The notes under the pieces were generated by a model, which did not search any database, was not told the origin of the DNA, and saw only the letters and a program-made list of their open reading frames with translations. Position numbers and translations under genes: made by a program. A DNA stretch of 61,503 bases from a virus (taxonomy: Duplodnaviria; Caudoviricetes): IMG/VR virus record IMGVR_UViG_3300021508_000029, positions 1 to 61,503 of that record; one strand, given 5' to 3'. Of the stretch, positions 7,488-61,503 are shown in pieces; position 1 is the stretch's first letter, and every line of letters begins with the position of its first letter.

Positions 7488-8162
7488 ATGATAATTACAG
7501 ATACAGTCCTAACCCGCCAGCGTATCATTCAGGAAAAAGCTTATGTTGCCGTAGGTATTACTGATATGGCTTTTAATATCCCTCAGCCATTCTTGCCTGG
7601 TATGTTTGAAGCCCTTCGTGATGAACTTGGAATTGATCCCGTAGGCTTGGCTCGGCAAGTGAATCAGGTTTATGCAGAAAACCTTGCAAATAATATGGCG
7701 AGTCGAATTAAAAAAGCAGCTGGTAAAGAAGATGTTGATCTTCCCACACAGGCCGATATGGATGAATTAGCTTTATCTTATGATTTCTCTGTTCGTACAG
7801 CAACAGCAGCCTTTGGTTCTACTTTTGATAAAATCTTTCACCGTATTGCATCTGGTTTCATTCGTAAGCTTCTTAAAAAGAAAGGCTATCAGGATACTCC
7901 AGCACCCGTTATGGTGGCTAAGAAAAATGCTGAAACTACAGAAGAAGGGCAAATCAGCTTTGAAGATTTTGAGGTTGAAGTAATTCGACTTACTGAAGGT
8001 GAGGGTCCTTGGAGTGAAAAAGACGCATTTATCAGCTTACGTAATGCACTTAAAGAAGAAGCAACTGCCGAAGAAGAGCGCATCCGTAATAGCGAACAAG
8101 AAACTGAAGATAAACTGGCTAATATTGACCTAGGGGGCGAACCTACTGGTGAAGATATGTAA
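7488..8162 (+). CDS. Putative DNA-binding phage protein with acidic tail
   Basis: Own promoter and terminator; NQVYAENLANN motif; function inferred. Confidence 0.6.
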   Translation: MIITDTVLTRQRIIQEKAYVAVGITDMAFNIPQPFLPGMFEALRDELGIDPVGLARQVNQVYAENLANNMASRIKKAAGKEDVDLPTQADMDELALSYDFSVRTATAAFGSTFDKIFHRIASGFIRKLLKKKGYQDTPAPVMVAKKNAETTEEGQISFEDFEVEVIRLTEGEGPWSEKDAFISLRNALKEEATAEEERIRNSEQETEDKLANIDLGGEPTGEDM

Positions 8163-12577: not shown

Positions 12578-12617
12578 CACTATGTAAATTTACTCTCCTT
12601 ATTTGCATAGTGTTTTT
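12578..12617 (+). terminator. Terminator-like hairpin
   Basis: CACTATGTAAAT / ATTTGCATAGTG followed by TTTTT. Confidence 0.7.
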
Positions 12618-12656: not shown

Positions 12657-14207
12657 ATGTTCTCAAATCGTATAGTCCAAGTTCTTACAGACGATATTCT
12701 AATCGACCGCCCAAACCGGCAACGTAGTGATTTAACACCTGAAGCAGTTATAAGTCTTGCTTATTCAATAGCAAAAAATCAATGGATTTCTCCTATTTTA
12801 ATTAATGAAGAAACTAATCACATTGTTGCTGGCGAACGTAGACTTACTGCAGTAAAAGTGCTTCATAGCTGTATTAATGGGGATTATTCAATATTCTCCA
12901 AACCAGACGAAGCCAGAGCCAAATTAGCTCACATATGTTCTTGTAAGGTTGATTCTTGGAAAGGGTGGACAAAGATACCATCTCAATTAGGAAAAAACCT
13001 AACCGAGCAAGAACTTGTTGTTTTTGAATTCATCGAAAATGCACAACGAAGTGATCTTAAATGGCAGGATAGAGCTAAGGCAATATATACTATTCATGCT
13101 CATGGCCTGGTTACAGAAAAGAAATGGAACAATCAACAAACAGGAGTCCTTGTAGGCCTTGATCATTCAAGCGTGGCTAAATGTTTGAAATTATGGAGAT
13201 TCATGATAGCGGCTGAAGTTGAAAAAAACACTAAATTAAAATTAATTATCACTGAAGCACCTACTTTACAATCCGCGCTTCAAACAATTGACCGGCATAT
13301 TTCTCGTAGACAAGATGATGTTGTATCTTTAACCTCGACAGCAATTGCACCTAAACCCAAAAATACAAAAGATATATCATCTAAACCCGGTCCAGCTATT
13401 GGAGTAGCACCTGTAATTGGTGGGGATATACCTGAGCTTGATGAAGATTTAAACGAGTATAATGAAGATGATAATCTTGAACTTTCTTCTCTCGGTAAAC
13501 AGCTTATTTTAAACCAAGACTTTAACTCGTGGGCAGAAAATTACGCTGGTCAACCTTTTAACTTTATTCATTGTGATTTCCCTTATGGTATTAATTTTAA
13601 TAAGGGTGTTTATGGCAATACGGTAAATTCTAAAATAACAAATGATTATTTAGATAGTCCAGATGTATATTGGGATTTATTAAATATTTTAGCCAAGCAT
13701 CAAGATAAATTAATTGCACCATCTGCTCATATAATGTTTTGGTTTTCGCAAAATCAGCGTAAAGAAACTGAAGATTTTTTCAACACAAACTTTAAAAAGT
13801 GTTTGGTTCAATCACATTTAATGATATGGCATTTTAGTGAAAATTCTGGAATTATTCCAGATTCTCAAAGATATGGAGTTCGTACTTACGAAACGGCTAT
13901 GTTAATTACTTTTGGTGATCGGTTTATAGTTGAGGCTAAATCATTATGTTTTGAAAGTTCGGCTGAGCGAAAAACACGTGTTCACCGTAGCCAAAAACCG
14001 CTTGCCGTTCTTAATCATTTCTTTAGAATGTTTGTAGATGATTCAAGCCGAGTTCTTGACCCGACAGCTGGTTCAGGAACAAGCCTAGTAGCCTCACATA
14101 ACTTAGAAGCAGAAGAGATTGTCGGACTCGAAATGCAAGAAGAAACGTATAAAACTGCTGTTAAATTTATTGATGAAGAACTAAGTAAAGAAGATATTAT
14201 ACTATAG
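12657..14207 (+). CDS. ParB-like N-terminal domain plus HTH, fused to an amino-DNA methyltransferase (beta-class motif order)
   Basis: RQR...ISPILI...IVAGERRLTA...ENAQRSDL; HTH QQTGVLVGLDHSSVAKCL; MTase HCDFPYG, HRSQKP, VLDPTAGSGTS. Confidence 0.88.
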   Translation: MFSNRIVQVLTDDILIDRPNRQRSDLTPEAVISLAYSIAKNQWISPILINEETNHIVAGERRLTAVKVLHSCINGDYSIFSKPDEARAKLAHICSCKVDSWKGWTKIPSQLGKNLTEQELVVFEFIENAQRSDLKWQDRAKAIYTIHAHGLVTEKKWNNQQTGVLVGLDHSSVAKCLKLWRFMIAAEVEKNTKLKLIITEAPTLQSALQTIDRHISRRQDDVVSLTSTAIAPKPKNTKDISSKPGPAIGVAPVIGGDIPELDEDLNEYNEDDNLELSSLGKQLILNQDFNSWAENYAGQPFNFIHCDFPYGINFNKGVYGNTVNSKITNDYLDSPDVYWDLLNILAKHQDKLIAPSAHIMFWFSQNQRKETEDFFNTNFKKCLVQSHLMIWHFSENSGIIPDSQRYGVRTYETAMLITFGDRFIVEAKSLCFESSAERKTRVHRSQKPLAVLNHFFRMFVDDSSRVLDPTAGSGTSLVASHNLEAEEIVGLEMQEETYKTAVKFIDEELSKEDIIL

Positions 14208-16688: not shown

Positions 16689-16904
16689 ATGAGTAAAATA
16701 AAAACTATAATTATTGTAACTAATCAAGGCGTCTCTACCCGCTCAGTCGGTGATGTTATAAACGGTATGCTTGTAGATAGAATAGTTGATCAATCAATAG
16801 AATTTGAATCTTCAATAGATTTTGTTTACGACGGATATACTGTAGAGGATAAGTTAATTTTTCAACTTATAAATCTACCTGTTGAAATCTTATATGACAA
16901 CTAG
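16689..16904 (+). CDS. Hypothetical protein
   Basis: AAGGA RBS. Confidence 0.7.
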   Translation: MSKIKTIIIVTNQGVSTRSVGDVINGMLVDRIVDQSIEFESSIDFVYDGYTVEDKLIFQLINLPVEILYDN

Positions 16905-17976
16905 TATAGTATTTATAAGCGACAAGTGGGGGTTTGATGAATCACTTTTCCAAACTCCATTTGTAGGTACAGCTGGTCAAGAGTTCTCCCGTATGTTAGC
17001 TCAGGCCGGATTTGGAAATAAAAGCCTTCCTTATAACTTCACATCTGCTATCCGCATGATGAATTATTGGGGCAAGTATAATTTTATATTCCTTAGTGTA
17101 TTCAATGAGCGTCCAGAAGATAATAATGTTGAATCATTTTATGCTCACCCAAAAGACAAAGTACCCCTTGACCGTAAACTTCCTCCCAGAAGGGTAGGCA
17201 CAAGTAATCTTTATTGCCGGGACGAGTACGCTTATCATGTATACGAATTGCATAAAAGGCTTGAGCAACTTAAACCTAATGTAATTGTAGCTCTTGGTAA
17301 CACGGCTCTCTGGGCGCTCCGTATCCCGCCCTCCATAGGTAAACTTCGTGGTAACGTGATTCAGTCTAAATGGGGGAAAGTTGTTCCAACTTATCATCCA
17401 TCTATGATTTTACGGAATTGGAGCAATCGTACAATTTCTCTCCTTGACCTTAATAAAGCAAGGCGGGAAAGTAAGAGTCCGAATATCTCCACACCGGATA
17501 GAATTATCTGGACTGAACCTACACTTGAAGATTTATACTTGTGGTGGGAAGAGCATGGGAGTAAGGCGAAACTTTTGGCTATTGATATTGAAACAGTCCG
17601 GCAAACTCAAGTTGCAGAAATAGGATTTGCATCTTCTCCCACTATGGCTCTACATATTCCTTTCGTATACAAGGATAATGGGAAATATATCTCTTGGTGG
17701 AAAACACCTGAGGAAGAACTTAAAGCATGGAACTTTGTAGAGATGGTATGTCGCTCAAGTGTTTTTAAAATCGGCCAGAACGTATGCCAGTATGATGTTT
17801 ATTTTATGATGCGAGCTTTAGGAATACCTATTATGAATATTACTGAAGACACTATGACACTTGCCCATAGCTGGCAACCGGAATTAGAAAAGAGTTTAGG
17901 TTTCCTTGGTAGCTTATTCTTGAATGAAAAAGCTTGGAAAAGTCTACGCTCTCACAGTGATAAAGAAGAATTTTAA
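16894..17976 (+). CDS. UDG-fold domain fused to the first part of a PolA 3'-5' exonuclease (split polymerase, part 1)
   Basis: PFVGTAG, PNVIVALGNTAL, PTYHPS (family 4 UDG fold); IDIET (ExoI), GQN..YD (ExoII), DTM; ExoIII absent. Confidence 0.85.
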   Translation: MTTSIVFISDKWGFDESLFQTPFVGTAGQEFSRMLAQAGFGNKSLPYNFTSAIRMMNYWGKYNFIFLSVFNERPEDNNVESFYAHPKDKVPLDRKLPPRRVGTSNLYCRDEYAYHVYELHKRLEQLKPNVIVALGNTALWALRIPPSIGKLRGNVIQSKWGKVVPTYHPSMILRNWSNRTISLLDLNKARRESKSPNISTPDRIIWTEPTLEDLYLWWEEHGSKAKLLAIDIETVRQTQVAEIGFASSPTMALHIPFVYKDNGKYISWWKTPEEELKAWNFVEMVCRSSVFKIGQNVCQYDVYFMMRALGIPIMNITEDTMTLAHSWQPELEKSLGFLGSLFLNEKAWKSLRSHSDKEEF

Positions 17977-23371: not shown

Positions 23372-23485
23372 ATGTTTAAACTAAAACCACTAGTCCGAGC
23401 TGTAAGATATTCAATTTATTACCAACTAGTAAATCAATTTAAAAAAGAACGTTTAACCAAAAAGGAAACCCACCATGTTACTTAG
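23372..23485 (+). CDS. 37-aa basic peptide (not in ORF track)
   Basis: AGGAG RBS; overlaps the dcd start. Confidence 0.5.
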   Translation: MFKLKPLVRAVRYSIYYQLVNQFKKERLTKKETHHVT

Positions 23486-24053
23486 TCATCACGCTTTACA
23501 CCATATTGTAAAATCCGGCATACTTGAAAATGCTAAAATCGAAAACATTAACCCAGCGTCAATTGACGTATGTCTTGGGAATACAATTTTAAAAGAGAAA
23601 CCACCGAAAGCACAACCAACTGCAATTAAGGATATGGGACTTATAACTGCTACAGATTTACAAGCTAAAGAATCTATTAACTTTCAAACACTTAATTTAG
23701 ATGATGATGAAATATATCTTCTTAAACCCGGCGAGTTTATTCTTGCCCAAACTATAGAAGTATTCAATTTTCCTAATCATATTGCAGGTGAATTCCGGCT
23801 TAAATCTACAGCCGCTAGAAACGGACTTGATCAGTCTTTAGCAGTATGGTTAGACCCTGGTTGGAATGGCAGTGTTCTTACAATAGAACTTAAAAATATA
23901 TCCCTTTATCATACTCTCGTTCTTCGACCAGGAATGAAAATAGGGCAGGTTATTTTTTATCAATGTTTCCCTGTACCGGATGAAGCAAGTTATGCAAAGG
24001 TCGGGCAGTATAATAATGATAAAACAACTCAAGCTGGGAAGGAGCTTAAGTAG
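23475..24053 (+). CDS. dcd: dCTP deaminase
   Basis: INPASIDVCLG, LKPGEFILAQTIE, KSTAARNG, LDPGWNG..LTIEL, IGQVIF, Y..VGQY. Confidence 0.92.
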   Translation: MLLSHHALHHIVKSGILENAKIENINPASIDVCLGNTILKEKPPKAQPTAIKDMGLITATDLQAKESINFQTLNLDDDEIYLLKPGEFILAQTIEVFNFPNHIAGEFRLKSTAARNGLDQSLAVWLDPGWNGSVLTIELKNISLYHTLVLRPGMKIGQVIFYQCFPVPDEASYAKVGQYNNDKTTQAGKELK

Positions 24054-24095: not shown

Positions 24096-27000
24096 CTAGT
24101 CCCTAACTCTTTTATTCCAAACTCCATTGAATCTTCTCCTAACTGAGGAGATTCTTTCTTCCAACGTTTTCTCAGTCTTATCATCTCCTCTAGCTCTTGC
24201 TGCATTTAATCTAACCCTCAAACTTCTTAACTGCCTTTCCGTATCTTTAACCTGGCTACTCATTCGAAGCACCTCCTTATACTCTTCTTTAGCTTTCTTC
24301 TGTTTATCCAAATCTTTTGTCTCGCCTCTTCCATATTCCTTAATAGCTTTCTCAGCACTTGCTACCTCTTTCACCCTATCATAATACTTTTGTGTATTCA
24401 TTCGGTCACTTGGTACAGCTGCAAACTGACTAAGAATAGGTATGTTTTTAGTTTTAATCTCATCTTCACTTAACGTGCTAGGTAGTCCACTTACACTAGT
24501 CATAAACTTTAACAGCCCAGCACCAAAGAAATTAACTGTATTTTGAAAGGTACTTGGACTTATGTCTGCCCAACCAGAATGTGCTATATCTCCACCGGTA
24601 GCTTCATTTAAAGTTCTTGACAAACCCTTATATATCTCTGGAGTATTTCGCCATGCAAGTTCAGCATCAGGTTTACTTCCTGCTCCAGGAAAATTAATAG
24701 GCCGTAATGGGTTGCCTGCAAAATTTTTATTTTCCACCACTTGTATAATAGGATCAAGTGCGGTGGGTGATATACCTTGTGCGAATGAGCCCCCACCCAA
24801 GGGGTTAAATGTATTTAATAACATAGTGATGGTATCCACACCTGTATCAGCTGCTGTCCGTATACCAGCGGCATTTTCACTTAACATCCCGCCCATACGC
24901 CATACCACATTATAAACCCAGGGAGCGGGGATTTTAACGAATTCCCCACCGATTTTAATGGGTAGAATAATGTTTCGTTCTTTCTCATATACTGGTATTT
25001 TATCCCATTCACTTACCCCCTCTTCATCATCATCTCCAATTGCCCGTCCAAGGGCATCGAATGTTGCGGACATTGCAATTGTACCAGCCACCATACCCAC
25101 AAGCTTTTTAGACTTCATCATATTTTTTATAACTTGTGCATTGCCTTGTACAGTCGCATTAAAGAATAAATAAAACATACCCATGCTAGATGAGTTAAAT
25201 CCCTTCCTCGTAAAGTTTGTTGTAAGATCTTTTGCAATTCTAGCTGCTTTAACATCTCCAACTTCTTTATACAAGGCTTCAAAAGTAGCCAGTCTCATAA
25301 TGTTTTCCACAATGATATTAGCTTTTTCAATATTATTGGCCATTTTAACTATTGTCTTTACTCCGGGTGTTCCTTCAATTTTAACTTTAGCATCAAAACT
25401 TTTTATACTTGTATCCATCTCCCGTAAGGATTCAACAAATGAAATCCGACCTCCAGCTTTTTCCCATCGTTCTACCATCTGCACATTCAAGTTTGCTGGG
25501 TCTCTATTTCCTTTCCAGTACACATCCATAAGGGCTTTAAATGTTTTACCATAGCTACCTATAATTTCTTTTGTATGGCTTTCAGCTTCACTCGCTTGCA
25601 TGTTATATACAGCAGTTAATGGATCACGAATAAGATTAGCCATTAAGAAAGCCGGGCTAGCACTCACCGCAGTAAACCTTACGATACTATTAACCCACCC
25701 AAAAACCTTACTTACAGATCCATGCTGTTGTGCGCCTAACTTATTGACTGCGGCAGCAAATACTGTAGCTCGCTCATTCTGCTCGATAGGACTAATAATT
25801 AATCTTTTACCTTTCCGAATAAGTCTTATATCCGTAGGGTTTAAATTAGATGTTTTCTTTTTCTTAACAAAACCTAATTCATCTGTAGCCGCTTGTGTAG
25901 TATCATTTCCTACAGTAAACCACTCTTTCCAGTTTAATTCGTTTTCCTTAATCTGCTCATATAAAAAATTATTAGCTAAATTCTTTTGTGCCGTTGCAGC
26001 TGCTGCATGTGCACGAGCTAATGTATTTTGAATTACATGAACTGGTTTACTTGCATTAGCTGATCCATATCTTACACTAATTCCTTTTGAAGGTCCGAAT
26101 CCCTTTTGATTTAGAAAGTCAAATGTTTTTTCATAGTCAAAAGCTTCTCGCCTTAAAGGTGCGTAATGTGGTTTATCCTTTATCATTGCAAGCTGTTCAG
26201 CTTGAGTAATATTCCCGCCTTCTTCAAGTAAATCTAATTGATGCTTAGTAAGTTGATCAAACACTGTAGCAATTTCATCTATTTTAGTGTTGTTCAAATG
26301 CCGATTATATATTTCTTCTGCATCAGGAGCATTAGCTGTATTAACTAATCCTTCTCCTTTTATAAACATACCTGAAGCATGTTGTTTGAATAACTGCCAT
26401 TCACTTGAAATACTAGTCTCATCCTTACCTTCTTCTATTCTTTCATGTTGAAAATATTCTTCCATTAAAGCATACATCCGTATTTGAGCTTCTTTGTTAT
26501 CTTTACCCTCTAGAATTTTATCTCGCTTCTCCTTTACCTCGTCTTGTTTTTCTTTAGTCAATCTAGGGAGTAAGCGGTTTATAAACTCATGTGAAGCTCG
26601 TTCAGACATATCCAAGTTTGCATTATCAAGGAAGATACTTCTAGCTGCTATCCAGTCGTTAACTTCTTCGAGTTTTATTCCTGATTCATCTACAAGTTTT
26701 ACTAATGGCTCAACAAATCTACGATTAATCTCGTCTATCTTAGTTGCCCGTTTAGATTCTGCAAGGTCAAATACGTCTTTAATTCCTTCATCCTTTTTCT
26801 CGATTGTGGCAAATGAATCTATAAACTTAACATACCAAGTTTGAAAAGTACCAAGTTCGTACTGCTCTCTAGGGTTGTCTTCCTTTGCATACATAGCCCT
26901 ACGGAAATCATCAGGCGAATCAAATATAGTTGACTGGAGAGAATCAGATAAATCAGTTGTACCAATAATGGGCTTAAGTGCTTGTTTATCTACATAAAGA

Positions 27001-30000
27001 TTATCTGCCAAGTTCGCCAAGTCGCCTTTAATATCTCCGGCTTTACTTTGTAGCTTGTTAATTATCTCTACATCATCCTCGTTAAAAATAACATAGTTAT
27101 AATTGCCTTCTCCTGCTTTCCTACTTGAACTGTCTAAATATTTATTACCTCGAATACCTATTTCCAATAGCTCATTAGATACTCGTCTTTGGCTATCTGA
27201 TTTATCTATAAGCCAACCATCTAAATTTTTAACTGCATAAAACTTACTTAATTCATTATAGAACTTATTCCCTGTCATCTCGTCCGTAATATACGAGCCC
27301 ATACCTGAATTAATAATAGCATTTTTAACATAATCTGATTGTTCAGTTAATGGCTTAGTCCAATCAAGATATTGATCCTGTTCCGGCTTAAGGTCTACTT
27401 CATAAAGATTACCTTTAGTTCCATCTTCCTTTAACTTATCTCTATACCATTGTCCAACACCTTTATCATCTGCAAAATATAAACCATGTCCTTGAGCTTG
27501 AGCACCTTCACCTGTGCCAATTTTTTCCATCAAAAACTTATCAATATCATGAGGTGTACCGTGAAAGGCTCTACTAAATAACTTCTGTTCATCACCTACA
27601 AAGTCTATAAATTGTTTACTTACTCTACCTTCAAGCCCTTGAGTTAAACCCCTATACAATAACCTTTCAATTTCATTTGCTTTCTTAGGGTCATTTACTA
27701 ATTGTTCAGCCTCCCTTAGCACATTCATACCTTGTGCATTAACATCTGAAATAGTTTTTGCCAGTTTTCTAGCTTGGTTAAGTATTGGAAAGTCAACAAG
27801 ATTGGTTGAAGCTTCAAACCCTCTCCAGCCTTCTTTATCTTGAGCCAACCAATCAAGCTCTTTGAGCAAAGCTGGTTTAAGTGAGTTTATATTTGTATTA
27901 TCTAACTCACTTGATAAATAGATTGTATCTCCTTGAGTATGAGCTTTATCTAATCCCATATATTTAAACTCAACTTTTTGACCCTTTAATTCAGAGTCAT
28001 TATCAAACAATATATTTGACTCCAAAACATCACTAAGCGTTTTTACTTCTCCTTTACTCACTCCTTCTTTAACTTGAATGTCTTGCTCAAGCTTCGATCC
28101 GACTCTAGGCGCACCCAAACGATCAAGCTCCTTAGCCAGGTTCAAACTATTCCCTACAGCCATGTGTGCATATTCAACTGCAAGTTCGGGTGTAAGTTGG
28201 AAATCAATCCCAACTGCTCTAGCCGCTCGACCAATTGAAGTCTCCCTAAACTTAGCTTTAAGTGTATCAGTCATTCTACGAGATAACCCGCTCTGCTGGT
28301 TTGATTCTTGAGAGAGCTGGATATACCAAGCAGCCAGTTCTTCCTTAGCTTGAAAATTAAGCTTATTAGGAACTTTCTCTTTTCCAAATAATTTTTCTTT
28401 AGCCGCTTGTGCAACCTTATTTCCTGCCTCAGCTTGCTTAAGTATATCCTTATTAAACCCTTCTAGTTTCCCGCCCAGAAGTCGATCAAGCCCTGAGTGA
28501 GAACTCTCATGCAAAATAACACTCGCAACATTATCACCTTCGACTTGTGAGCCACCATAGATATTAAAAACTCCTCTATTTAAATCAAACTCTCCTTGTG
28601 CATTATCAGTACTTGCTTCGTTAGTAAAATTTAAAATCCCTGCTTGTTCAAGCTTATCTACAGTTTTTGGGTCTATAAACTTCCTTGCTTCCTCACGCAT
28701 CTGGTCGCTGGTTTTAGCTACAAGGTTTACATCTTTACCTTCAAACCTAGATTGTGTTCCACCTTCTGAGGCTAGGAAATCTAAATCAAGATCTTTACCT
28801 TTAACCTGTTTTTCTTGCCACAGTCCTTCAGAATCTTTAAACCATTTAGGATTATCAACTAAACCTCGGGCTAGTGCTTGCCCTTCAGTTAGCTCAAGCC
28901 CGGTTTGTTTTTTCCCTTGTGGGTTTGTTTTAATAATCCACCCATTATCTTTCTCAACCACCTCAGCATTAGCAAGACCTTCCCTGCCCATAGCAGCTTC
29001 AGCAGCACGAGGTGATTTAAACACTTCTGTATCTTTTTCCGTAGTTACTGTCCCTTCCACAAACGAACCTTGGCCTTTACGCTCAGCTTCTAATCTAGAT
29101 TCTGTTTCTAAGTTAACCTCTTGTTTTTTACGTACAGTATTACCTTTATTATCTTGACCATAAGTAATTGCCTCTTCCTTAATCTCGTCTTGCTTTTCAA
29201 ATAATTCTGCATTAGTATCATCTAAATATACTAACTCACCTTTGTCTCTAGTATATTGATAATCATCTACATCCTGATAAATAATTTCTCCTTGTTTATT
29301 TTTACCTACCTCAACATCAGCCTCTGCTACTTTAGTTAAGGGTTCCACAACATCTGGCTCTATAGCTTTAGGCTGTGTAATAATAGGCTCGACAACAGGA
29401 TCAACAACCGAACTGGCTTCCTCTATAATTTCTGGTTCGGCTACAGATTCTTGTTGGTTAATTACTTCTTCAGGCTTTTTACCTACAACCTGTTTTAGAT
29501 CTATATCTGATTTTGGTTCTTGCTTCGGGCTAGCTAAGGTCCCAAGTCCACCTCCAGCTACTCCACCAACTAGCCCACCAGCAACTATTGCATTTTGAAC
29601 CTGACTCCAATCCTCGTCACTCAAGTCCGCAAACATTGGATCTTCTTTAGCCCAGCGTACTCCAGCAATATTAACTAACTGCTGCATCCCTTCTGTAAGC
29701 CCTTCAACTCCAGCACCCAAACTACCTGCCTTAGCAGCTCGACCACTAAGCTCTAGAGCCAAATTGCGTAAAATTTTATCTCCTTTAATAACCTTTCGTA
29801 TACTCTTTTTAGCTACATCTCCAGCACCAAGGCTCTTGGCCACCTTATAAAGTGGAAGAAATTCTAATGCACCGCTTAATCCGCCTATCCCGGTAGCCGC
29901 CCATTTAGCCCTTTCAGGATCAGCACCTTCTTCGATTGCTTCTCCGAAAGCTGCTCCGCCCTCATACCCCGCACCCGTTGCAAAACCACCTACAACTTCA

Positions 30001-30551
30001 CCACGTGTAAGTATTTTCTTAACTTCAGCTGTAGCCTTATCTTTAACCCCTTGAGTTACTTGCCGACCAACAAGATTCTTACCTACCTCAGTTCCTAAAA
30101 TATCTTTAGTAGCTGAACCTATTGCTTTTTTAGCTACCTGTCTACCAACAATACCACCAACACCTAAAGCTGCTAAGTTTGGAAGCCCCTTACCCAATTG
30201 ATAACCTACAAAGTCACCGACACTTCCAGTCTCTCCTATGTCTTCAAACTTAGAAACCTTTGGAGCTTGTTGCCCAAAAGTAGCTTCCTCCATATTCCTT
30301 TTATAAACATCTAACCCATATTCGCTTGCTGGTTCAAGATACTTCTCCCCAAAGTTATCAGGAGTTACTGACTTTAAATGTTGTGCTCCTAGTGCAAGTA
30401 GTCCACCACCTATTGCTTGGCTTTCATCTCCAAACGCACGAACACCTTTACCGAATTCAGACATCTCAGGACGTAAGTCCACCTTCCTATTCGGGTCATA
30501 AGGTTCATTTGCATATTTATCATAGGGATTAAGTGCTAGTTGGTTAGCCAT
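24096..30551 (-). CDS. Large polyvalent internal virion/ejection protein (zincin peptidase-like, ART-like and LPD38-like domains)
   Basis: Gly/Ala-rich N-terminus; VILHESSHSGL (HExxH); AFHGTPH...IGTGEGAQAQGHGLYFA...NYVIF; C-terminal WDKIPVYEKERN...KIPAP...ENKNFAGNP. Confidence 0.8.
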   Translation of the reverse strand: MANQLALNPYDKYANEPYDPNRKVDLRPEMSEFGKGVRAFGDESQAIGGGLLALGAQHLKSVTPDNFGEKYLEPASEYGLDVYKRNMEEATFGQQAPKVSKFEDIGETGSVGDFVGYQLGKGLPNLAALGVGGIVGRQVAKKAIGSATKDILGTEVGKNLVGRQVTQGVKDKATAEVKKILTRGEVVGGFATGAGYEGGAAFGEAIEEGADPERAKWAATGIGGLSGALEFLPLYKVAKSLGAGDVAKKSIRKVIKGDKILRNLALELSGRAAKAGSLGAGVEGLTEGMQQLVNIAGVRWAKEDPMFADLSDEDWSQVQNAIVAGGLVGGVAGGGLGTLASPKQEPKSDIDLKQVVGKKPEEVINQQESVAEPEIIEEASSVVDPVVEPIITQPKAIEPDVVEPLTKVAEADVEVGKNKQGEIIYQDVDDYQYTRDKGELVYLDDTNAELFEKQDEIKEEAITYGQDNKGNTVRKKQEVNLETESRLEAERKGQGSFVEGTVTTEKDTEVFKSPRAAEAAMGREGLANAEVVEKDNGWIIKTNPQGKKQTGLELTEGQALARGLVDNPKWFKDSEGLWQEKQVKGKDLDLDFLASEGGTQSRFEGKDVNLVAKTSDQMREEARKFIDPKTVDKLEQAGILNFTNEASTDNAQGEFDLNRGVFNIYGGSQVEGDNVASVILHESSHSGLDRLLGGKLEGFNKDILKQAEAGNKVAQAAKEKLFGKEKVPNKLNFQAKEELAAWYIQLSQESNQQSGLSRRMTDTLKAKFRETSIGRAARAVGIDFQLTPELAVEYAHMAVGNSLNLAKELDRLGAPRVGSKLEQDIQVKEGVSKGEVKTLSDVLESNILFDNDSELKGQKVEFKYMGLDKAHTQGDTIYLSSELDNTNINSLKPALLKELDWLAQDKEGWRGFEASTNLVDFPILNQARKLAKTISDVNAQGMNVLREAEQLVNDPKKANEIERLLYRGLTQGLEGRVSKQFIDFVGDEQKLFSRAFHGTPHDIDKFLMEKIGTGEGAQAQGHGLYFADDKGVGQWYRDKLKEDGTKGNLYEVDLKPEQDQYLDWTKPLTEQSDYVKNAIINSGMGSYITDEMTGNKFYNELSKFYAVKNLDGWLIDKSDSQRRVSNELLEIGIRGNKYLDSSSRKAGEGNYNYVIFNEDDVEIINKLQSKAGDIKGDLANLADNLYVDKQALKPIIGTTDLSDSLQSTIFDSPDDFRRAMYAKEDNPREQYELGTFQTWYVKFIDSFATIEKKDEGIKDVFDLAESKRATKIDEINRRFVEPLVKLVDESGIKLEEVNDWIAARSIFLDNANLDMSERASHEFINRLLPRLTKEKQDEVKEKRDKILEGKDNKEAQIRMYALMEEYFQHERIEEGKDETSISSEWQLFKQHASGMFIKGEGLVNTANAPDAEEIYNRHLNNTKIDEIATVFDQLTKHQLDLLEEGGNITQAEQLAMIKDKPHYAPLRREAFDYEKTFDFLNQKGFGPSKGISVRYGSANASKPVHVIQNTLARAHAAAATAQKNLANNFLYEQIKENELNWKEWFTVGNDTTQAATDELGFVKKKKTSNLNPTDIRLIRKGKRLIISPIEQNERATVFAAAVNKLGAQQHGSVSKVFGWVNSIVRFTAVSASPAFLMANLIRDPLTAVYNMQASEAESHTKEIIGSYGKTFKALMDVYWKGNRDPANLNVQMVERWEKAGGRISFVESLREMDTSIKSFDAKVKIEGTPGVKTIVKMANNIEKANIIVENIMRLATFEALYKEVGDVKAARIAKDLTTNFTRKGFNSSSMGMFYLFFNATVQGNAQVIKNMMKSKKLVGMVAGTIAMSATFDALGRAIGDDDEEGVSEWDKIPVYEKERNIILPIKIGGEFVKIPAPWVYNVVWRMGGMLSENAAGIRTAADTGVDTITMLLNTFNPLGGGSFAQGISPTALDPIIQVVENKNFAGNPLRPINFPGAGSKPDAELAWRNTPEIYKGLSRTLNEATGGDIAHSGWADISPSTFQNTVNFFGAGLLKFMTSVSGLPSTLSEDEIKTKNIPILSQFAAVPSDRMNTQKYYDRVKEVASAEKAIKEYGRGETKDLDKQKKAKEEYKEVLRMSSQVKDTERQLRSLRVRLNAARARGDDKTEKTLEERISSVRRRFNGVWNKRVRD

Positions 30552-52482: not shown

Positions 52483-54669
52483 TTATAATCCTAAAGTATC
52501 TAATGCACTATCTACATCTATAGCACTATCTACATCTATAGGAGCTGGTTTAGGAGCCTCTAATTGGGGGGCAGTTTGACCTTGTCCTTCATTTAATATT
52601 TCAGGCGCTTTAACAGTTCCCTCAGGTTGCTTACTAATAAGGCCTTGCATAACTTTAACTTGTGCATTAAGAAGTTCAGCTGCTTTAGCTTGCTCTGAGG
52701 CCATCTTATTAAAGTCGTCTTCAAGTGCAAGTTTAAGTGTGTCTACCTGTTTCTTCAAATCAGCCTTATAAACTTCAGCTTGTGCCTCTATTTGCGCCAC
52801 AACTATACGAGGGTCAGGTTCCTTCTCGGCTTCCTGAAGCTGTTCAAGCTCCTCCTCTGTCATGGCTAAGGCCTCTGCATCAATCTGAAAACCCTCCAAA
52901 TACATATCCATCCACTTTTTAGGCGACAGACCAAAAATAGGTTGAAGTGTTTTATCTCCTATTTGGAGTAGAGCTTGTTGTTGAAGCTCACGCACAATAA
53001 GCGCAGATGACCCGAGTGGTTCAACAACTGCATCCCCCTTAACTTCATTAGGCCCATAAAGCTGTGACCACTCGTAAAAAGCAGTCATCATTGGGTAGCA
53101 AGTTTTATCATCCCACTCCTTGATTACCAAACGTAAGTTAGTAGTTGCGTTACTCATAAGCTGTTGACTAACACCTACAGCGTTAGTAGCAGCTTGACCC
53201 TGAAGAAGAAGGCTTAACCCAGTTGTATCCTCAGCCATCTTGATCCAATATTGGATAACAGGCATTATCTCATTTAGGTAATTAGGAAACTCTAAAAATG
53301 ATAATGCATCTTTAGCTTCTCTAACCGCTTCTTGTCCTGGGAGTGAAGACTTAATTTTCCACCTTTTATATGGTCGCATCTCCCAATTTTCACCTTCAAC
53401 AGGTTCGATAACATCATCAAGCTCAAGAACCTGAGGGCCGACTGAGTATCCCATATTATCCATAAGCGCACGGACAGATGAATCCAAACCTCTTTGGGAT
53501 GTTTCTATTATTTCTGGAACACCAATACCGGCCCATGAATTATCTCTAGGCTCCCAAGTCAAAACCCAGTAAGGAAGTATAGGGGTTTCTAACCAGAAAG
53601 CTTCAGACTTGATAATATGATCATTACATAAAGTAGTTACTTGAAAACCGAAAGACTTAGTTTCATCCTTTATTTTACATTCAAGAGTTCCTGTCCGTAG
53701 CCAAAGCTCAAAAGAATCACTAGATTTATTTGTTCCTTTTTCGTTCTTCTTCTCAGGTGATTTCGGACCTTCATCTATACAAAGGATAATTTGTTCACTA
53801 TCATAAGAAGAGTCTTTTTTATACTCTTTAAGCTGGGTTTTAGTAACTTCAGGCACACGCTCGTAAAAGTAATTACCATTTTGAATATCAGTCCCACACT
53901 CAGCATCTGGATAACAATTTTCCACCTTAATATTTTCGATATGAGGAGTAAACTCAAGCAGAGTGCGAAGAGTGTTTTGAAGGTATATACCCACACTCGG
54001 ATCATCTACAGCTGTAGGAAGTTGGTCAAGAAGGATTTCTATATCTTTAGATAATTTACGTGCTTTAGGAAACGGCCCTTTAATAATACCTGTACCAACT
54101 TTACCGGCTTCTATAATTTGTTTCCGAACCGCATAAGACCAGTTAGATTCCTTAAGCCAATCCTTAATAAGTTTAGTTGCCTTTCCGAGTGCCTCCTTAT
54201 TTACATCTTCAGTTACAGTTAACCGTGCATTAAGCTCCGGAGTAAGCTTAGGTAAGACCTCCATTACTGTAGGGAAATCTTTAAGAATTGATCGAAGTAT
54301 TTCTATATCAGAAACCGGAGTTTGTTTAAACTCAAATGGAAGCTTATTAGTTGGGAGGAGTATGTCAGCTACTCTAGCCGTACCTGCATTTGTATAAGGT
54401 CGAGTTATGTTGACAACTACAGTCGAACCCCTGGAGGATGAGCAAGATGAGTCAGAAGCTGTTAATGCGGAATCGAGTGTCTCACCCTTTTCCATCCCAG
54501 ATAAGGAGCCAGAACTTGTATCACTTATCCCCTGATACTGCTTACGAGCCTTAGACCAAATGGAATCTAAACCTTGCCGTTTACGAGCCTGAATTGATGC
54601 TGTTCGTTCTTTACAGAGCTGAGCTTCAAGTTGCTTAAGTTTTTCTTCTTCTAGATCTAAAATAGTCAT
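52483..54669 (-). CDS. Portal protein
   Basis: Follows TerL; VNITRP, GTGIIKGP, WAGIGVPE, DNMGYS.GPQ, AEDTTG...QGQ; start set at MTILD. Confidence 0.85.
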   Translation of the reverse strand: MTILDLEEEKLKQLEAQLCKERTASIQARKRQGLDSIWSKARKQYQGISDTSSGSLSGMEKGETLDSALTASDSSCSSSRGSTVVVNITRPYTNAGTARVADILLPTNKLPFEFKQTPVSDIEILRSILKDFPTVMEVLPKLTPELNARLTVTEDVNKEALGKATKLIKDWLKESNWSYAVRKQIIEAGKVGTGIIKGPFPKARKLSKDIEILLDQLPTAVDDPSVGIYLQNTLRTLLEFTPHIENIKVENCYPDAECGTDIQNGNYFYERVPEVTKTQLKEYKKDSSYDSEQIILCIDEGPKSPEKKNEKGTNKSSDSFELWLRTGTLECKIKDETKSFGFQVTTLCNDHIIKSEAFWLETPILPYWVLTWEPRDNSWAGIGVPEIIETSQRGLDSSVRALMDNMGYSVGPQVLELDDVIEPVEGENWEMRPYKRWKIKSSLPGQEAVREAKDALSFLEFPNYLNEIMPVIQYWIKMAEDTTGLSLLLQGQAATNAVGVSQQLMSNATTNLRLVIKEWDDKTCYPMMTAFYEWSQLYGPNEVKGDAVVEPLGSSALIVRELQQQALLQIGDKTLQPIFGLSPKKWMDMYLEGFQIDAEALAMTEEELEQLQEAEKEPDPRIVVAQIEAQAEVYKADLKKQVDTLKLALEDDFNKMASEQAKAAELLNAQVKVMQGLISKQPEGTVKAPEILNEGQGQTAPQLEAPKPAPIDVDSAIDVDSALDTLGL

Positions 54670-57763: not shown

Positions 57764-58059
57764 CACAATAACTTATAAACAGCGCAATCTTATACGGGGC
57801 ATCGGTTTCGGGCAGTTTGAAAAGCTGCTATATAGAGTCAACGTATGTACAAAACCCTTTGTATAAACTTTTTCATTATTTAATTTACATAGTTAGAGTG
57901 GGTCTCGATTATTTGGTATAAATAATTTTGAGCTGATGGACAATAGTACTACCAGCTACGAAATAAAGAACACCCAGGGGTCTTTCATATATATAAAAAG
58001 AGCAAGAAAACGAGGTCAGCTTACCCAGTATGGGGCTTTGAGTACGGATTAAGTGGCAC

Positions 58060-58113
58060 GGGATTTCGTGGGCAAGCTGTGCGGGATTTCGTGCCTTTGT
58101 GTGGGATTTCGTG
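58060..58113. repeat. Three direct repeats of GGGATTTCGTG
   Basis: At 58060, 58083 and 58103. Confidence 0.9.
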
Positions 58114-58693: not shown

Positions 58694-58730
58694 TCTAGTA
58701 TTTTGCTGGGTTATAAATGGAGATATAAAA

Positions 58731-58994
58731 ATGAATCAAGAACAACTTAATAAACTTGTACAAAGTAAAATTAGCATAACTGAAGCTGATATAATAATTG
58801 TACACTTCGATCCCGAATACAAAGCCATTAAAGTTGATATTCAATGGGAGGGCTTTGCGGATTTTGAAACAGAAGCTGAAATGCAAAACGCGGTTGAAGA
58901 ACGTGCAATTATGGGTTCAATTGCTTTCATGGATGAGCATTCTGGTGAAAGCATAACAGCATATGCAATGAATTGGACAGCAGAAAAGGAGTAA
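58731..58994 (+). CDS. Acidic early protein
   Basis: GGAGATATAAAAATG RBS. Confidence 0.8.
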   Translation: MNQEQLNKLVQSKISITEADIIIVHFDPEYKAIKVDIQWEGFADFETEAEMQNAVEERAIMGSIAFMDEHSGESITAYAMNWTAEKE

Positions 58995-59071
58995 TCCCCA
59001 GAGAGGACTTTAACAAGTCCTTTCGCGGAATTATTTATATCAAGTAATTCATTTAAATTGGAGATATAAAA

Positions 59072-59308
59072 ATGAGTAAACACACCGTAAAAATTGGGTC
59101 AAACTCGATTGAATTTGATGATGCTGTATTCGATAAAAAAGTAATAGATTATCTTATTCAATTGGGCTTAACGCATCTTATGCACTCAAGATTCCAAGCA
59201 GCTAAACGGGGTAAAAACCTCAACCAAGCCGAAATAGATTTTATGTTTAAACGATGTGCTAAAAGAATACAAAATTTAAAGGTAGAACAAAAATCGGTTA
59301 TAAGCTAA
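59072..59308 (+). CDS. Early protein, short paralog of 59735-60232
   Basis: Shared RBS; similarity seen by eye. Confidence 0.8.
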   Translation: MSKHTVKIGSNSIEFDDAVFDKKVIDYLIQLGLTHLMHSRFQAAKRGKNLNQAEIDFMFKRCAKRIQNLKVEQKSVIS

Positions 59309-59387
59309 GTAACGCCAGAATATATCTTTATAAAAAGGGTATATTCGGAGTTATTTATTTGGAATAACTTAAATTGGAGATATAAAA

Positions 59388-59654
59388 ATGAGTCACCTTG
59401 CACATGAATTTGTATCAGAAGCAGATATATTTAATGCCGTTGAAAGTCAAATTTTAAGCGAAATACCTGAAATTAATATTAATTTATCAGTGAAATTTAT
59501 TTGTAAAAACAAACAAATACAATTTATTGATGAAGATAATAATATTAATTGTACTGCAGTGTATCACGAGTGGGCTGAAGAAGTATGGATAATTACAGAA
59601 TATGTAAATAAATGTTCAATCGGCAAGTTTACTTTTAAATTGCTTATTGAATAA
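59388..59654 (+). CDS. Early hypothetical protein
   Basis: Shared RBS. Confidence 0.8.
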   Translation: MSHLAHEFVSEADIFNAVESQILSEIPEININLSVKFICKNKQIQFIDEDNNINCTAVYHEWAEEVWIITEYVNKCSIGKFTFKLLIE

Positions 59655-59734
59655 TAAGACCCACATAAGATATCTTTATAAAAAGGGTATCTTGTGAGTA
59701 TCTTATTGTGAGATATTGTAATGGAGATATAAAA

Positions 59735-60232
59735 ATGAGTAAATTTACTGTAACAAGTCACGGAACCAAGTTTGATTTTGATACCGAAACTGGAGACTGG
59801 ACAGATGAGGTTATTCTTGCCCATGCAAAGCAAGGAATTAAAATCCGGCTTGACCGTTCAAGTGCCTCATTGACTAAAAAAGATGGTTCAACTGACCAAG
59901 ACCGTTTGAATTGTGCCATGAAAGTGGCTAAATCCATCCAGAGTGGTGAAATGCCTAAATCTGGTGGCGGTGGAAGTCGTTTAACAATTAAAGATCGGGC
60001 TTTAAAAGCCGCTCTGTTGGTTAAGTTAAGCTTTGAAAAGAAAGAAACCATAAGCGAGGCTTTGGAACGGTATACCAAGGCCATTGCTGAAGGACAGAAA
60101 AAGGACTTTGAGCCAGAAATGGTTGAAAAAGTAAAAGCAGCTTTGGAAAATACCCCAGTTTACAAGAACATGATTGAATTGGAAGAAAGCAAGCTGGTTA
60201 AAACAGATGATATGGGAGATTTAAGTTTATAA
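59735..60232 (+). CDS. Early protein
   Basis: Start moved to the ATG at 59735, after the shared RBS. Confidence 0.85.
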   Translation: MSKFTVTSHGTKFDFDTETGDWTDEVILAHAKQGIKIRLDRSSASLTKKDGSTDQDRLNCAMKVAKSIQSGEMPKSGGGGSRLTIKDRALKAALLVKLSFEKKETISEALERYTKAIAEGQKKDFEPEMVEKVKAALENTPVYKNMIELEESKLVKTDDMGDLSL

Positions 60233-60309
60233 AATAAGGAGTAACACTTAAGACTCATTAGAAATAGTGGGTCTTGTGGGTTATTTTGACCCATTAACAG
60301 GAGATATAA

Positions 60310-60429
60310 ATGGACATTAAAGAAGTATTATTGAATATTATAGATGATATTGGTATATTTGCATGGCTCGGACTATCTAAAGAGGAGCAAAACAGATTAA
60401 TCTCTATTGAAATATACGGAGATATATAA
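60310..60429 (+). CDS. 39-aa early peptide (not in ORF track)
   Basis: AGGAGATATAAATG RBS; followed by a terminator. Confidence 0.7.
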   Translation: MDIKEVLLNIIDDIGIFAWLGLSKEEQNRLISIEIYGDI

Positions 60430-60434
60430 AAGAT

Positions 60435-60471
60435 AAAAAAGACCAGTTATCACAAGGTGGCTGGTCTTTTT
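60435..60471. terminator. Probably bidirectional rho-independent terminator
   Basis: AAAAAAGACCAGTTATC-ACAA-GGTGGCTGGTCTTTTT. Confidence 0.85.
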
Positions 60472-60476
60472 ACGTA

Positions 60477-60492
60477 TGTTCCACGTGGAACT
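60477..60492. promoter_or_regulatory. parS: Chromosomal-type parS site
   Basis: TGTTCCACGTGGAACT; perfect 14-bp palindrome, 15/16 match to TGTTNCACGTGNAACA. Confidence 0.75.
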
Positions 60493-60617
60493 ATAAGTAA
60501 ATACGTTTCCCTCCTTTAATTCGTTTAAAATTCTTACCAAGCCAGGGCTTATATAGCAATATCGGATGAATATACTTTCCTACATTATGTAAATTTACCG
60601 TAGCCAAAAGGTTGCTC

Positions 60618-60858
60618 TATGCAAAACCCATGCCAAGCCTAGATAACCCATTGATTTTATCCACACCCAATTATCTATGCACAACCCATGCCAACATTTA
60701 AACCCATAAAAACACAGCAAAACTTGCCCCAAAAACCCGCTTATGCAAAACCCATGCCAAAACAAAAGCTGGTCATTTCTTAACCATAATTGCCCTTAAC
60801 AATACGTTACCAGTGAAAAACACCTCCAAAAAACCACGTTATGCAAAACCCATGCCAA
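60618..60858 (-). promoter_or_regulatory. Array of four sigma54 -24/-12 motifs
   Basis: TATGCA(A/C)AACCCATGCCAA at 60618, 60676, 60742 and 60840; minus strand TTGGCAT-GGGTT-(T/G)TGCATA. Confidence 0.75.
60644..60665. promoter_or_regulatory. IHF consensus site abutting a perfect DnaA box
   Basis: Minus strand AATCAATGGGTTA (60644-60656); TTATCCACA (60657-60665). Confidence 0.55.
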
Positions 60859-60864
60859 AGAAGC

Positions 60865-60877
60865 TAAGTTATTGATT
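60865..60877 (-). promoter_or_regulatory. IHF consensus site
   Basis: Minus strand AATCAATAACTTA. Confidence 0.55.
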
Positions 60878-60934
60878 CTAGGGGTTATTCGTACATACAT
60901 ATTCTTAACCACTTTCCAAATATTTACAGATAAA

Positions 60935-60972
60935 CATACATATGTTTGGTTTAAATCAATTCATACATACGT
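60935..60972. repeat. Dispersed palindromic element, copy 10 (TTGGTTTAAATCAA at 60946-60959)
   Basis: TATGTTTGGTTTAAATCAATTCATACATAC is identical to copy 1. Confidence 0.9.
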
Positions 60973-61014
60973 TTTAACTACCATTTTTTACGTGTAGTTA
61001 AGCATTTTGTAGGT

Positions 61015-61421
61015 AAACGTATGTATCTTAAACGTACCACAGGTCTACCAAAACGTACCACAGGTCTACCACAGGTCTACCACCCGTCTAGCACCCGTCT
61101 ACCGCTACCCACCAAACGTACCAAAACAGGATCTCACGTAAAGAAATACGTTTCCCTCCCCTTCCTATAATAGGGATTTGAGGAATACGAAAAGCTCTAT
61201 AATAAAATATATATATATATATATATAAGAGAAGAAAGACTCTTCTTTTTCTCACCTATTTAAAATATATATATATACACATATATACATACCTATCCAC
61301 TTTAAAATATATCTATATAAACCTGGCTCAAACGTATTCACGTTATCCACCCCCAGATCTCACATTGGTACGTTTAATAGACCCTTAATAGACCCCCCAT
61401 AGACCCTTAATAGACCCCCCA
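61015..61421. other. Putative replication origin
   Basis: Phased GTCTA array (61043-61101), AT-rich centre with (AT)n tracts, inverted phased TAGAC array (61378-61415), repeated AAACGTA heptamers. Confidence 0.55.
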
Positions 61422-61503
61422 TAAGTTTGGTTGTTTATTACGCGGGTAACCCATTAACGTGAACAACCCATGACAACCGTATCATTTATACATCATCATT
61501 CAC
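61368..61503. repeat. Terminal direct repeat / circular assembly overlap (copy 2)
   Basis: Matches 1-136. Confidence 0.95.

Follow-up and report, generated by a model that had tools for sequence, protein, structure and literature searches.

The window analysed here is an entire IMG/VR virus record (IMGVR_UViG_3300021508_000029; 61,503 bp, linear, rated 97% complete), and it encodes a protein in which a ParB-like half with a helix-turn-helix (HTH) is joined through a linker to a DNA methyltransferase (MTase). The same record carries a parS-like palindrome, TGTTCCACGTGGAACT. Judged from sequence comparison, this site is real and under selection but accessory, and the fusion and parS are probably not an obligate pair, since close relatives keep the fusion without the site. 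The reading that we favour, with slightly less than even confidence, is that the protein is a core amino-MTase of the replication module whose ParB arms would tether or clamp it on DNA without a canonical parS, the accessory parS-like site being read by the ParB of the host. The preliminary description of this DNA had proposed instead that a fusion dimer loads at the phage parS via its HTH, becomes a sliding clamp dependent on nucleoside triphosphate (NTP), and methylates in cis, giving self-specific protection from restriction; we consider this model possible but rather unlikely.

Occurrence of parS-like sites in relatives with the fusion

Near-family loci were mapped by anchoring on the conserved helicase, and the window proteins and parS patterns (at ≤2 mismatches) were placed on them. 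Eight near-family records cover the junction, by which we mean the stretch between the structural module and the helicase, and four of these contained parS-like sites (the window, G003, G004 and G029). No parS-like site at ≤2 mismatches was present in the four others, namely G005, G044, G032 and the record of L360. The fusion and the junction occur on the same record in five cases, three with parS (the window, G003 and G004) and two without (G005 and G044); because the junction is covered in both of the latter, they lack the site by synteny. Distant fusion-bearing phages (31–36% identity, ~45-kb genomes) had parS at ≤1 mismatch in 0 of 23 records, and at the same threshold none of 26 records matched the reversed-pattern control. 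Co-occurrence of parS and the fusion, which the preliminary description had named as a check on its loading model, was thus mixed in close relatives and negative in distant ones, and both results weigh against that model.

The records with sites differed in how the sites were built. G003 (63 kb, with terminal repeats, 100% complete), whose fusion is 52% identical to that of the window, has a perfect TGTTTCACGTGAAACA and repeats the window's order of gene, terminator and parS. In G004 (54 kb) the sites are TGTTTCACGGGAAACA and TGTTTCACGGGAAATA, separated by 16 nt and starting 32 nt from each other. These G004 sites (L083 1500–1550, equivalent to G004 54017–54064) join a parS-type half, TGTTTCAC, to a half of the Noc-binding-site (NBS) type, TGTTTCCC or TATTTCCC, a call that rests on the position separating parS from the NBS (PMC7383237; this and the other papers cited were available in part, and what is said of them is limited to those parts). 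G029, a fragment of 22 kb whose head protein shares 76% identity with that of the window, has TGTTCCACGTGGAACA and TGTTTTACGTGAAACA, 53 nt apart, just upstream of an orthologue of p174, a small gene beside the window's own site (Table 1).

Alternatives to parS were also sought. G044 spans portal, terminase, junction, helicase and fusion without any site. The G005 junction holds a p174 orthologue, a terminator and a repeat-rich non-coding region, and in place of parS there are three copies of a 23–29-bp palindrome, TGTACAAATGATCC.GGATCATTTGTACA (L335 4118–4140 and 4467–4489; L361 8186), one of them just upstream of the helicase. As a shared alternative this palindrome was rejected, being found in L335 alone (1 of 338 loci) and not in the window. 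Near the distant fusions a shared alternative palindrome was likewise rejected: no 12-mer palindrome occurred in three or more loci within 10 kb on either side across 40 distant loci, a further point against the loading model, and no 16-mer half-site occurred in more than 2 of the 40.

Domains, fold and motifs of the fusion protein

The ParB–HTH–linker–MTase architecture given in the preliminary description was borne out by the open reading frame, Pfam, the AlphaFold2 (AF2) domains and Foldseek. The N6_N4_Mtase family (PF01555) matched residues 334–502 at 41.1 bits against a cut-off of 26.7. ParB_N (PF02195) matched residues 10–68 at 23.7 bits (E 5.1e-5), which is just below the gathering score of 26.3, and a second search gave 23.2 bits; the precomputed annotation of the protein collection assigns PF02195.27 to the fusion. 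PHROG matches comprised the DNA methyltransferase family phrog_498 (1.3e-18) and several ParB-like partition families. The AF2 model, built from a 28-sequence alignment, had a mean predicted local distance difference test (pLDDT) score of 81.4, with confident domains at residues 1–220 and 276–512 and disorder at 221–275 and in a loop at 313–329.

Foldseek searches against the PDB placed the N half with ParB of M. xanthus (7bnk, 1.2e-6) and C. crescentus (7bm8, 2.1e-6), with Noc (7ol9, and 7nfu at a TMt of 0.55) and with B. subtilis ParB (6sdk), over ~220 columns that include the NTP-binding and HTH domains. Sequence matches in the PDB were Noc (7ng0, 1e-4), H. pylori Spo0J (4umk, 1.7e-4) and T. 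thermophilus Spo0J (1vz0). The C half matched beta-class MTases, namely M.BceJIV (8urk, 2.1e-10), M1.HpyAVI (5hfj), MboIIA, CcrM and RsrI, with 1g60 and 6pbd among the entries matched, and by sequence the adenine MTase 5hek (1.6e-5). The C half is read as a DNA amino-MTase, most likely with an N6-adenine target; the N4-cytosine MTases 8s9m and 1boo match by fold too.

Motif conservation was assessed across 28 aligned relatives (36–78% identity), in which the motifs earlier read in the translation, GERR, ENxxRxDL and DFPY in place of DPPY, are conserved. G59 and R62 of GERR are invariant, with E60 and R61 at ≥90%; E127, N128 and L134 of ENxxRxDL are invariant, with R131 at ≥90%; and D468, T470, G472 and S473 of motif I are invariant. 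Motif IV lies upstream of motif I, an order that places the enzyme in the beta class, and it reads DFPY, the canonical form being (D/S)PP(Y/F) ahead of a motif I of the FxGxG type. The conservation of GERR and ENxxR, together with a fold of ParB N-terminal domain (NTD) plus DNA-binding domain (DBD), speaks for the parS-loading model. The invariant catalytic motifs argue for an active enzyme, as far as sequence can tell.

Canonical ParBs carry an N-terminal ParA-activating peptide; the fusion protein opens directly in strand 2–10 of the model, with no peptide ahead of it. Relative to ParB, residues 70–102 form a 33-residue insertion after Box II. Inside it, residues 91–102 (12927–12962) form a C-x-C-x-V-[DE]-S-W motif, of which C96, S100 and W101 are invariant in 14 near-family sequences; the C-x-C motif is missing from the distant fusions. 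At the Box I position of the cytosine-contacting glycine the fusion has Q42 (residue roles per PMC13229309), and the NTP specificity of ParB folds is reported to be unpredictable from sequence or AlphaFold3 (PMC12704722). The linker had been described as acidic and Pro-rich, which agrees with our finding of a Pro-rich part followed by an acidic one; its length varies across the 28 sequences.

The HTH and its capacity to read parS

Contacts between chromosomal ParB and parS are made by Q162, G170, K171, S172, N178 and R204 in Caulobacter numbering, and specificity is set by R173, T179, A184 and G201, with R173 kept invariable in parS-specific variants (PMC7383237). In the HMMER alignment to Noc, the ParB positions G170-K171-S172-R173 and N178-T179 are occupied in the fusion by G167-L168-D169-H170 and K175-C176. 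The parS-reading residues K171, S172, R173 and N178 are therefore replaced by L168, D169, H170 and K175, and glycine alone is retained. These replacements argue against loading at parS through the HTH.

They also bear on a host-directed reading, in which the fusion would load at the host's chromosomal parS or co-assemble with host ParB, methylating or disturbing the host origin, with the phage site incidental or a decoy. The match of the phage sites to the near-universal chromosomal parS consensus, and the closeness of the N half to chromosomal ParB and Noc, are consistent with it. The parS-reading residues are not conserved in the HTH, however, the gene sits in the replication block and not in the early operon, and no evidence was found that points directly to a host target; we regard this reading as very improbable.

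Three HTH types were distinguished in the near-family alignment, with one or two genomes per type. The window and G003, whose sites are both CACGTG-centred, are of type 1 (GLDHS[ST]VAK). Type 2 (GIH[RK]ATVTE) occurs in G004, with its two mixed sites, and in G044, with no site, and type 3 (GISPSAVGRY) in G005, which has no parS and a palindrome of its own.

Predicted MTase dimer and ring layout

Two copies of residues 276–516 were predicted as a complex with ipSAE values of 0.76, 0.75 and 0.76, compared with 0.00 for the best of three controls; the ipSAE mark applied is passed by 20 of 30 solved homo-pairs and 1 of 23 single chains. The predicted dimer had a contact agreement of ≥96% and a pLDDT of ≥84, with an interface at 364–433 plus 458 that takes in the strongly conserved segment P401..A414. 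These models predict that the MTase domain homodimerises; the score may reflect likeness, because related beta-class MTase structures have already been solved. A C-terminal dimer with long flexible linkers to HTH and NTP-gate arms would make DNA entrapment possible in principle. If the dimer is real, two ParB arms on a dimeric MTase could in principle form a ParB-like ring layout, and this reproduction of the ParB ring topology by predicted dimer and long linker counts in favour of the parS-loading model.

The parS-like site and its junction

The preliminary description had called the site a canonical parS. It is a real site, with one match against 0.02 expected and one match attained in 2 of 100 shuffles, and "canonical" was slightly generous, since TGTTCCACGTGGAACT has one mismatch to TGTTNCACGTGNAACA and two mismatches to the parS consensus given in that description. 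A chance origin was ruled out by the low expectation and by the syntenic sites in relatives. These syntenic junction sites in the window, G003, G004 and G029, and their position next to a repeat-rich, origin-like region, are points in favour of parS loading.

In the window, an intrinsic terminator (Table 1) closes an operon of small genes at 58.5–60.4 kb, and the parS-like site lies 1–2 nt downstream of it, bordering a non-coding stretch of 1 kb rich in direct repeats. The p174 gene of this operon had no Pfam or PHROG match, and a p174-anchored scan of IMG/VR returned G003 and G029 only. As a partner of parS, p174 was rejected, its adjacency to a site holding in just three of the five records with the gene.

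The placement of the sites bears on a third possibility, in which the ParB arms would bind parS-like operators and, like KorB, BisD or VirB, control an early-to-middle switch or the firing of the origin, the MTase part serving chiefly for dimerisation, whether or not it also leaves an epigenetic mark. One G029 site abuts TATAAT ~30 nt upstream of the p174 start, and TATAAG comes directly after the window site, together with a motif that recurs 645 nt away. In L366, from a more remote relative with a GC content of 54% and a helicase 42% identical, GGTTCCACGTGAAACA (7742–7757) stands 2.2 kb upstream of the helicase, with TATAAG on one side and the ribosome-binding site and ATG of a gene on the other, an operator-like placement. 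Transcription-regulating ParB-like clamps that use cytidine triphosphate (CTP), including HerB, have also been described in sources available in part. Against such regulation, the −10-like hexamers are consensus matches and not above chance (16 found vs. 17.3 expected), the fusion persists in records that lack a site, and the MTase catalytic motifs are invariant, so we give a regulatory clamp only a slender chance.

The non-coding, origin-like stretch (60494–61503) contained TATGCAAAACCCATGCCAA four times (60616–60858), AAACGTACCACAGGTCTACCA three times (61030–61082) and ATAGACCCTTAATAGACCCCCC three times (61377–61420), with (TA)n tracts at 61207–61227. The iterons are bracketed by AAATACGTTTCCCTCC at 60499–60514 and 61144–61159, and ACGTTTCCCTCC is also present in the G005 junction. 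For the dispersed palindrome that the preliminary description had named as another possible loading site, a scan for palindromic k-mers gave a single GC-containing 10-mer with three copies, GTAAATTTAC (at 12584, 59739 and 60589). Upstream, at 58695–60444, five small plus-strand genes share a translation-initiation block, (A/T)TGGAGATATAAAAATGA, with spacings of 341, 316 and 347 nt, and two of the intergenic hairpins are repeated as well, at 59316–59359 and 59664–59707; the arrangement is suggestive of an early-gene cassette array. Just ahead of the early operon, at 58055–58113, GGGATTTCGTG occurs in three direct copies with 20–23-nt spacing.

The fusion class and parS across viruses

The fusion belongs to a viral ParB_N–N6_N4_MTase class that is already reported but uncharacterised. 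In a large protein collection, 1189 proteins reached E ≤ 1e-3 among 7999 scored candidates, and the best 120 of the 1189 were mostly full-length with both Pfam families, many on contigs of 59–72 kb. A fusion relative was encoded in 572 of 598 pattern-matching stretches of IMG/VR, and ESM Atlas neighbours formed clusters of 424–460 aa with ParB_N and N6_N4_Mtase that were 96–100% viral. The preliminary description had stated that ParB–MTase fusions are known in phages and poorly characterised. This agrees with a report that N6N4 MTases are frequent fusion partners of ParB-CTPase folds in phages and prophages, for which it suggests a role "perhaps in anti-defense", and that such fusions are among the commonest phage ParB-like proteins and uncharacterised (PMC12704722, PNAS 2025). 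In that work 28 of 50 chosen ParB-fold proteins were purified and 11 bound NTP; in the available part of the paper none of these 11 is named as an N6N4-MTase fusion, which weighs against the parS-loading model. A literature search, with most subscription journals outside its coverage, found no paper on a ParB–MTase fusion with a cognate or co-resident parS. M.EcoGIX/M.BceJIII was dropped as a ParB-bearing lead, as PMC7736820 describes no ParB domain in them in its available part.

Perfect copies of TGTTYCACGTGRAACA occurred in at least 119 IMG/VR contigs. Among the matches listed (80), ParB_N was encoded in 1 of 50 records of ≥10 kb with a perfect parS, and so chromosomal-type parS in viral contigs appears mostly without a viral ParB. 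The rarity of ParB_N in such records can be taken in favour of parS loading, the pairing in the window being uncommon. Several viral contigs among the matches listed had 2–5 perfect chromosomal-type sites (L213, L222, L241, L242, L243 and others); one multi-site record, G070, is 77 kb long and 97% complete. Five multi-site records with 2–4 perfect sites (L206, L213, L222, L241 and L261) had no match to ParB_N or ParA.

Such orphan parS clusters on viral contigs may exploit host ParB. A precedent exists in the lytic phage phi29, in which five parS sites are bound by host Spo0J and exploited for spore entrapment (PMC2731898). By analogy, this precedent, the 49 of 50 listed parS-bearing viral records without ParB_N, and the five of five multi-site records without ParA make host reading of phage parS plausible.

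Weighing the readings

In the reading that we favour, the dimeric beta-class MTase would replace the C-terminal dimerisation domain of ParB, each MTase being joined through a flexible linker of ~55 residues to an NTP-binding and HTH arm. The dimer would methylate newly replicated phage DNA, and the progeny would then resist restriction. The ParB arms would hold the enzyme on DNA as a tether or clamp gated by NTP, with no requirement for a canonical parS. The parS-like site is a real, selected but accessory element of the early/origin junction, its most likely reader being host chromosomal ParB, as in phi29; in the parS-bearing members the fusion may bind it as well.

Several points weigh against this reading. 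The closest solved relatives of the N half, Noc, Spo0J and ParB, are the clade that binds parS or the NBS. The HTH types hint at co-variation with the site types, judged from one or two genomes per type and with G044 as a clear exception, and this loose correspondence would fit parS loading. G005 and G044 are rated 35% and 34% complete, so that a site outside the sequenced part is possible. A ParB-family HTH protein occurs together with parS-like sites in the window, G003 and G004, an unusual pairing, but one on which the preliminary description had selected this DNA. Host ParB, the most likely reader of the phage parS by analogy, is assumed. Methylation, NTP binding and DNA binding by the fusion family are predicted activities.

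A narrower version of parS loading would confine it to the parS-bearing members (the window, G003 and G004), where the fusion would be a nucleotide-gated clamp loaded at parS near the origin-like repeats, closed by its MTase and methylating processively in cis; members without parS would then load at other palindromes, such as the triple 23–29-bp palindrome of G005. We hold this version to be doubtful as well. The dependence on parS proposed in the preliminary description was not supported, given relatives that have the fusion and no parS, an HTH without most parS-reading residues, and the phi29 precedent for host reading.

Were this narrower version true, delivery of an enzyme along DNA by a ParB-type clamp would be shown for the first time. 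The near family offers a test bed, with a full ParB NTD and HTH, a predicted ring-closing MTase dimer, and natural genomes with and without chromosomal-type parS. Clamp-delivered DNA modification would be established by a dependence of methylation or loading on parS. Without such a dependence, the ParB arms would serve the enzyme independently of a centromere-like site, and the phage parS would be a further example, beside the documented one of phi29, of host ParB being put to use by a lytic phage.

Genomic setting

The phage is a member of a lytic-looking family of ~60 kb. The fusion follows, in order, helicase (4521), exonuclease (9058; PD-(D/E)XK-type) and AAA_24 ATPase (10892) genes in a replication/recombination block, and is itself followed by genes for an RNase_T-type exonuclease (14419), an ATP-dependent ligase (15044), a uracil-DNA glycosylase (UDG)-domain protein (16882), DNA polymerase (19273; polymerase A), a primase (22104) and a dCTP-deaminase-like protein (23475). 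Genes for the major head protein, portal and terminase lie on the opposite strand to this block. The UDG-superfamily domain protein (16882–17976), upstream of the DNA polymerase, and the dCTP-deaminase-like gene (23475–24053) may point to an unusual base content or nucleotide metabolism. On the minus strand, 24096–30551 encodes a protein of 2150 aa, probably a giant virion-associated one. Its last 900 residues match giant PHROG families of unknown function (phrog_14770, 7.8e-93), and an endolysin-like segment lies at 990–1173.

Within the record, ParB_N matched the fusion alone. The preliminary description was right that no ParA is encoded: PF01656 and PF13614 had no match in this 97%-complete record, and control profiles matched in 14 of 14 genomes. 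No tyrosine integrase was found in the record, nor any tRNA gene that could give a clue to the host. A GTDB scan returned eight loci, with just two full-length distant fusion relatives, on contigs of metagenome-assembled genomes, and no hint of a host. Among GenBank phages there was no close relative, the 15 protein matches covering the MTase part only and no DNA match being found. A single-protein scan of IMG/VR gave no fusion relative, and the near-family contigs found in a metagenome scan were short.

Table 1. Positions of the fusion gene, its domains and motifs, and the junction elements in the window.
Feature	Position	Strand	Basis or remark
Fusion gene, ParB(NTD+HTH)–linker–MTase, 516 aa	12657..14207	+	Open reading frame, Pfam, PHROG, AF2, Foldseek
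ParB/Srx NTP-binding domain and ParB-type HTH domain, residues 1–220	12657..13316	+	PDB and Foldseek matches; pLDDT mostly >85
Box II GERR, G59–R62	12831..12842	+	Translation
Box III ENAQRSDL, E127–L134	13035..13058	+	Aligned to Noc IENLQREEL
HTH: helix 159–166, turn G167-L-D169, recognition helix from H170	13131..13223	+	DSSP of the model; Noc alignment
Linker, Pro-rich then acidic, 55 residues, 221–275	13317..13481	+	Disordered, pLDDT 33–36
Beta-class N6/N4 amino-MTase domain, residues 276–516, predicted homodimer	13482..14204	+	Pfam, PDB, Foldseek
Motif IV variant DFPY, D307–Y310	13575..13586	+	Invariant in 28/28 sequences
Motif I DPTAGSGT (S-adenosylmethionine binding), including D468, G472 and S473	14058..14081	+	Aligned to 5hek DPFMGSGT
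p174 gene, 165–174 aa	59735..60232	+	Orthologues adjoin parS-like sites in 3/5 records with the gene
Intrinsic terminator hairpin, 15-bp stem and U tract	60437..60475	+	−28.1 kcal/mol, z −5.64
parS-like palindrome TGTTCCACGTGGAACT	60477..60492	.	Junction of early operon and repeat-rich non-coding region

Comparison with known systems

ParB/Spo0J and Noc are CTP-dependent DNA clamps loaded at parS and the NBS, respectively. The fusion resembles these chromosomal proteins in its NTD fold with GERR and ENxxR, in the position of the HTH, in the NTD–DBD arrangement and in a topology of two arms on a dimerising C-terminal module. It differs from them in having no ParB C-terminal domain, no N-terminal ParA-activating peptide and no ParA gene, as well as in the replacement of K171, S172, R173 and N178 and in the 33-residue insertion after Box II. 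Measured against canonical ParABS, the fusion falls short in ParA, the ParB C-terminal domain, the N-terminal peptide, the parS-reading residues and a universal cognate parS. A partition function was ruled out by the lack of ParA, of a tyrosine integrase and of the N-terminal peptide.

The MTase part shares its fold (Foldseek E 2e-10 to 4e-8) and its order of motif IV then motif I with M.BceJIV, M1.HpyAVI, M.MboIIA and CcrM. Unlike these beta-class N6-adenine MTases, it has DFPY rather than DPPY (28/28) and is joined to ParB arms. With the fusions of PMC12704722 it has in common the same two Pfam families (PF02195 and PF01555) in the same order, a viral origin and the lack of ParA. The full ParB-type HTH, the 55-residue linker, the predicted MTase dimer and the parS-like sites in half of the near family are features not stated there, as far as the available part of that paper goes.

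Like phi29, this is a lytic-looking phage with chromosomal-type parS and no ParA/ParB partition operon, although phi29 has five sites and no ParB-like gene, whereas here there are one or two sites and a phage ParB-like protein (phi29 as described in the available part of PMC2731898). The ParB-like activators of T-dioxygenases (PMC13229309) are similar in that a phage ParB fold is coupled to a post-replicative DNA-modifying enzyme. According to the available part of that source, the two are separate proteins, the ParB has no DNA-binding domain and NTP-motif mutants are still active, whereas in the window the ParB fold is fused to the modifying enzyme and carries an HTH.

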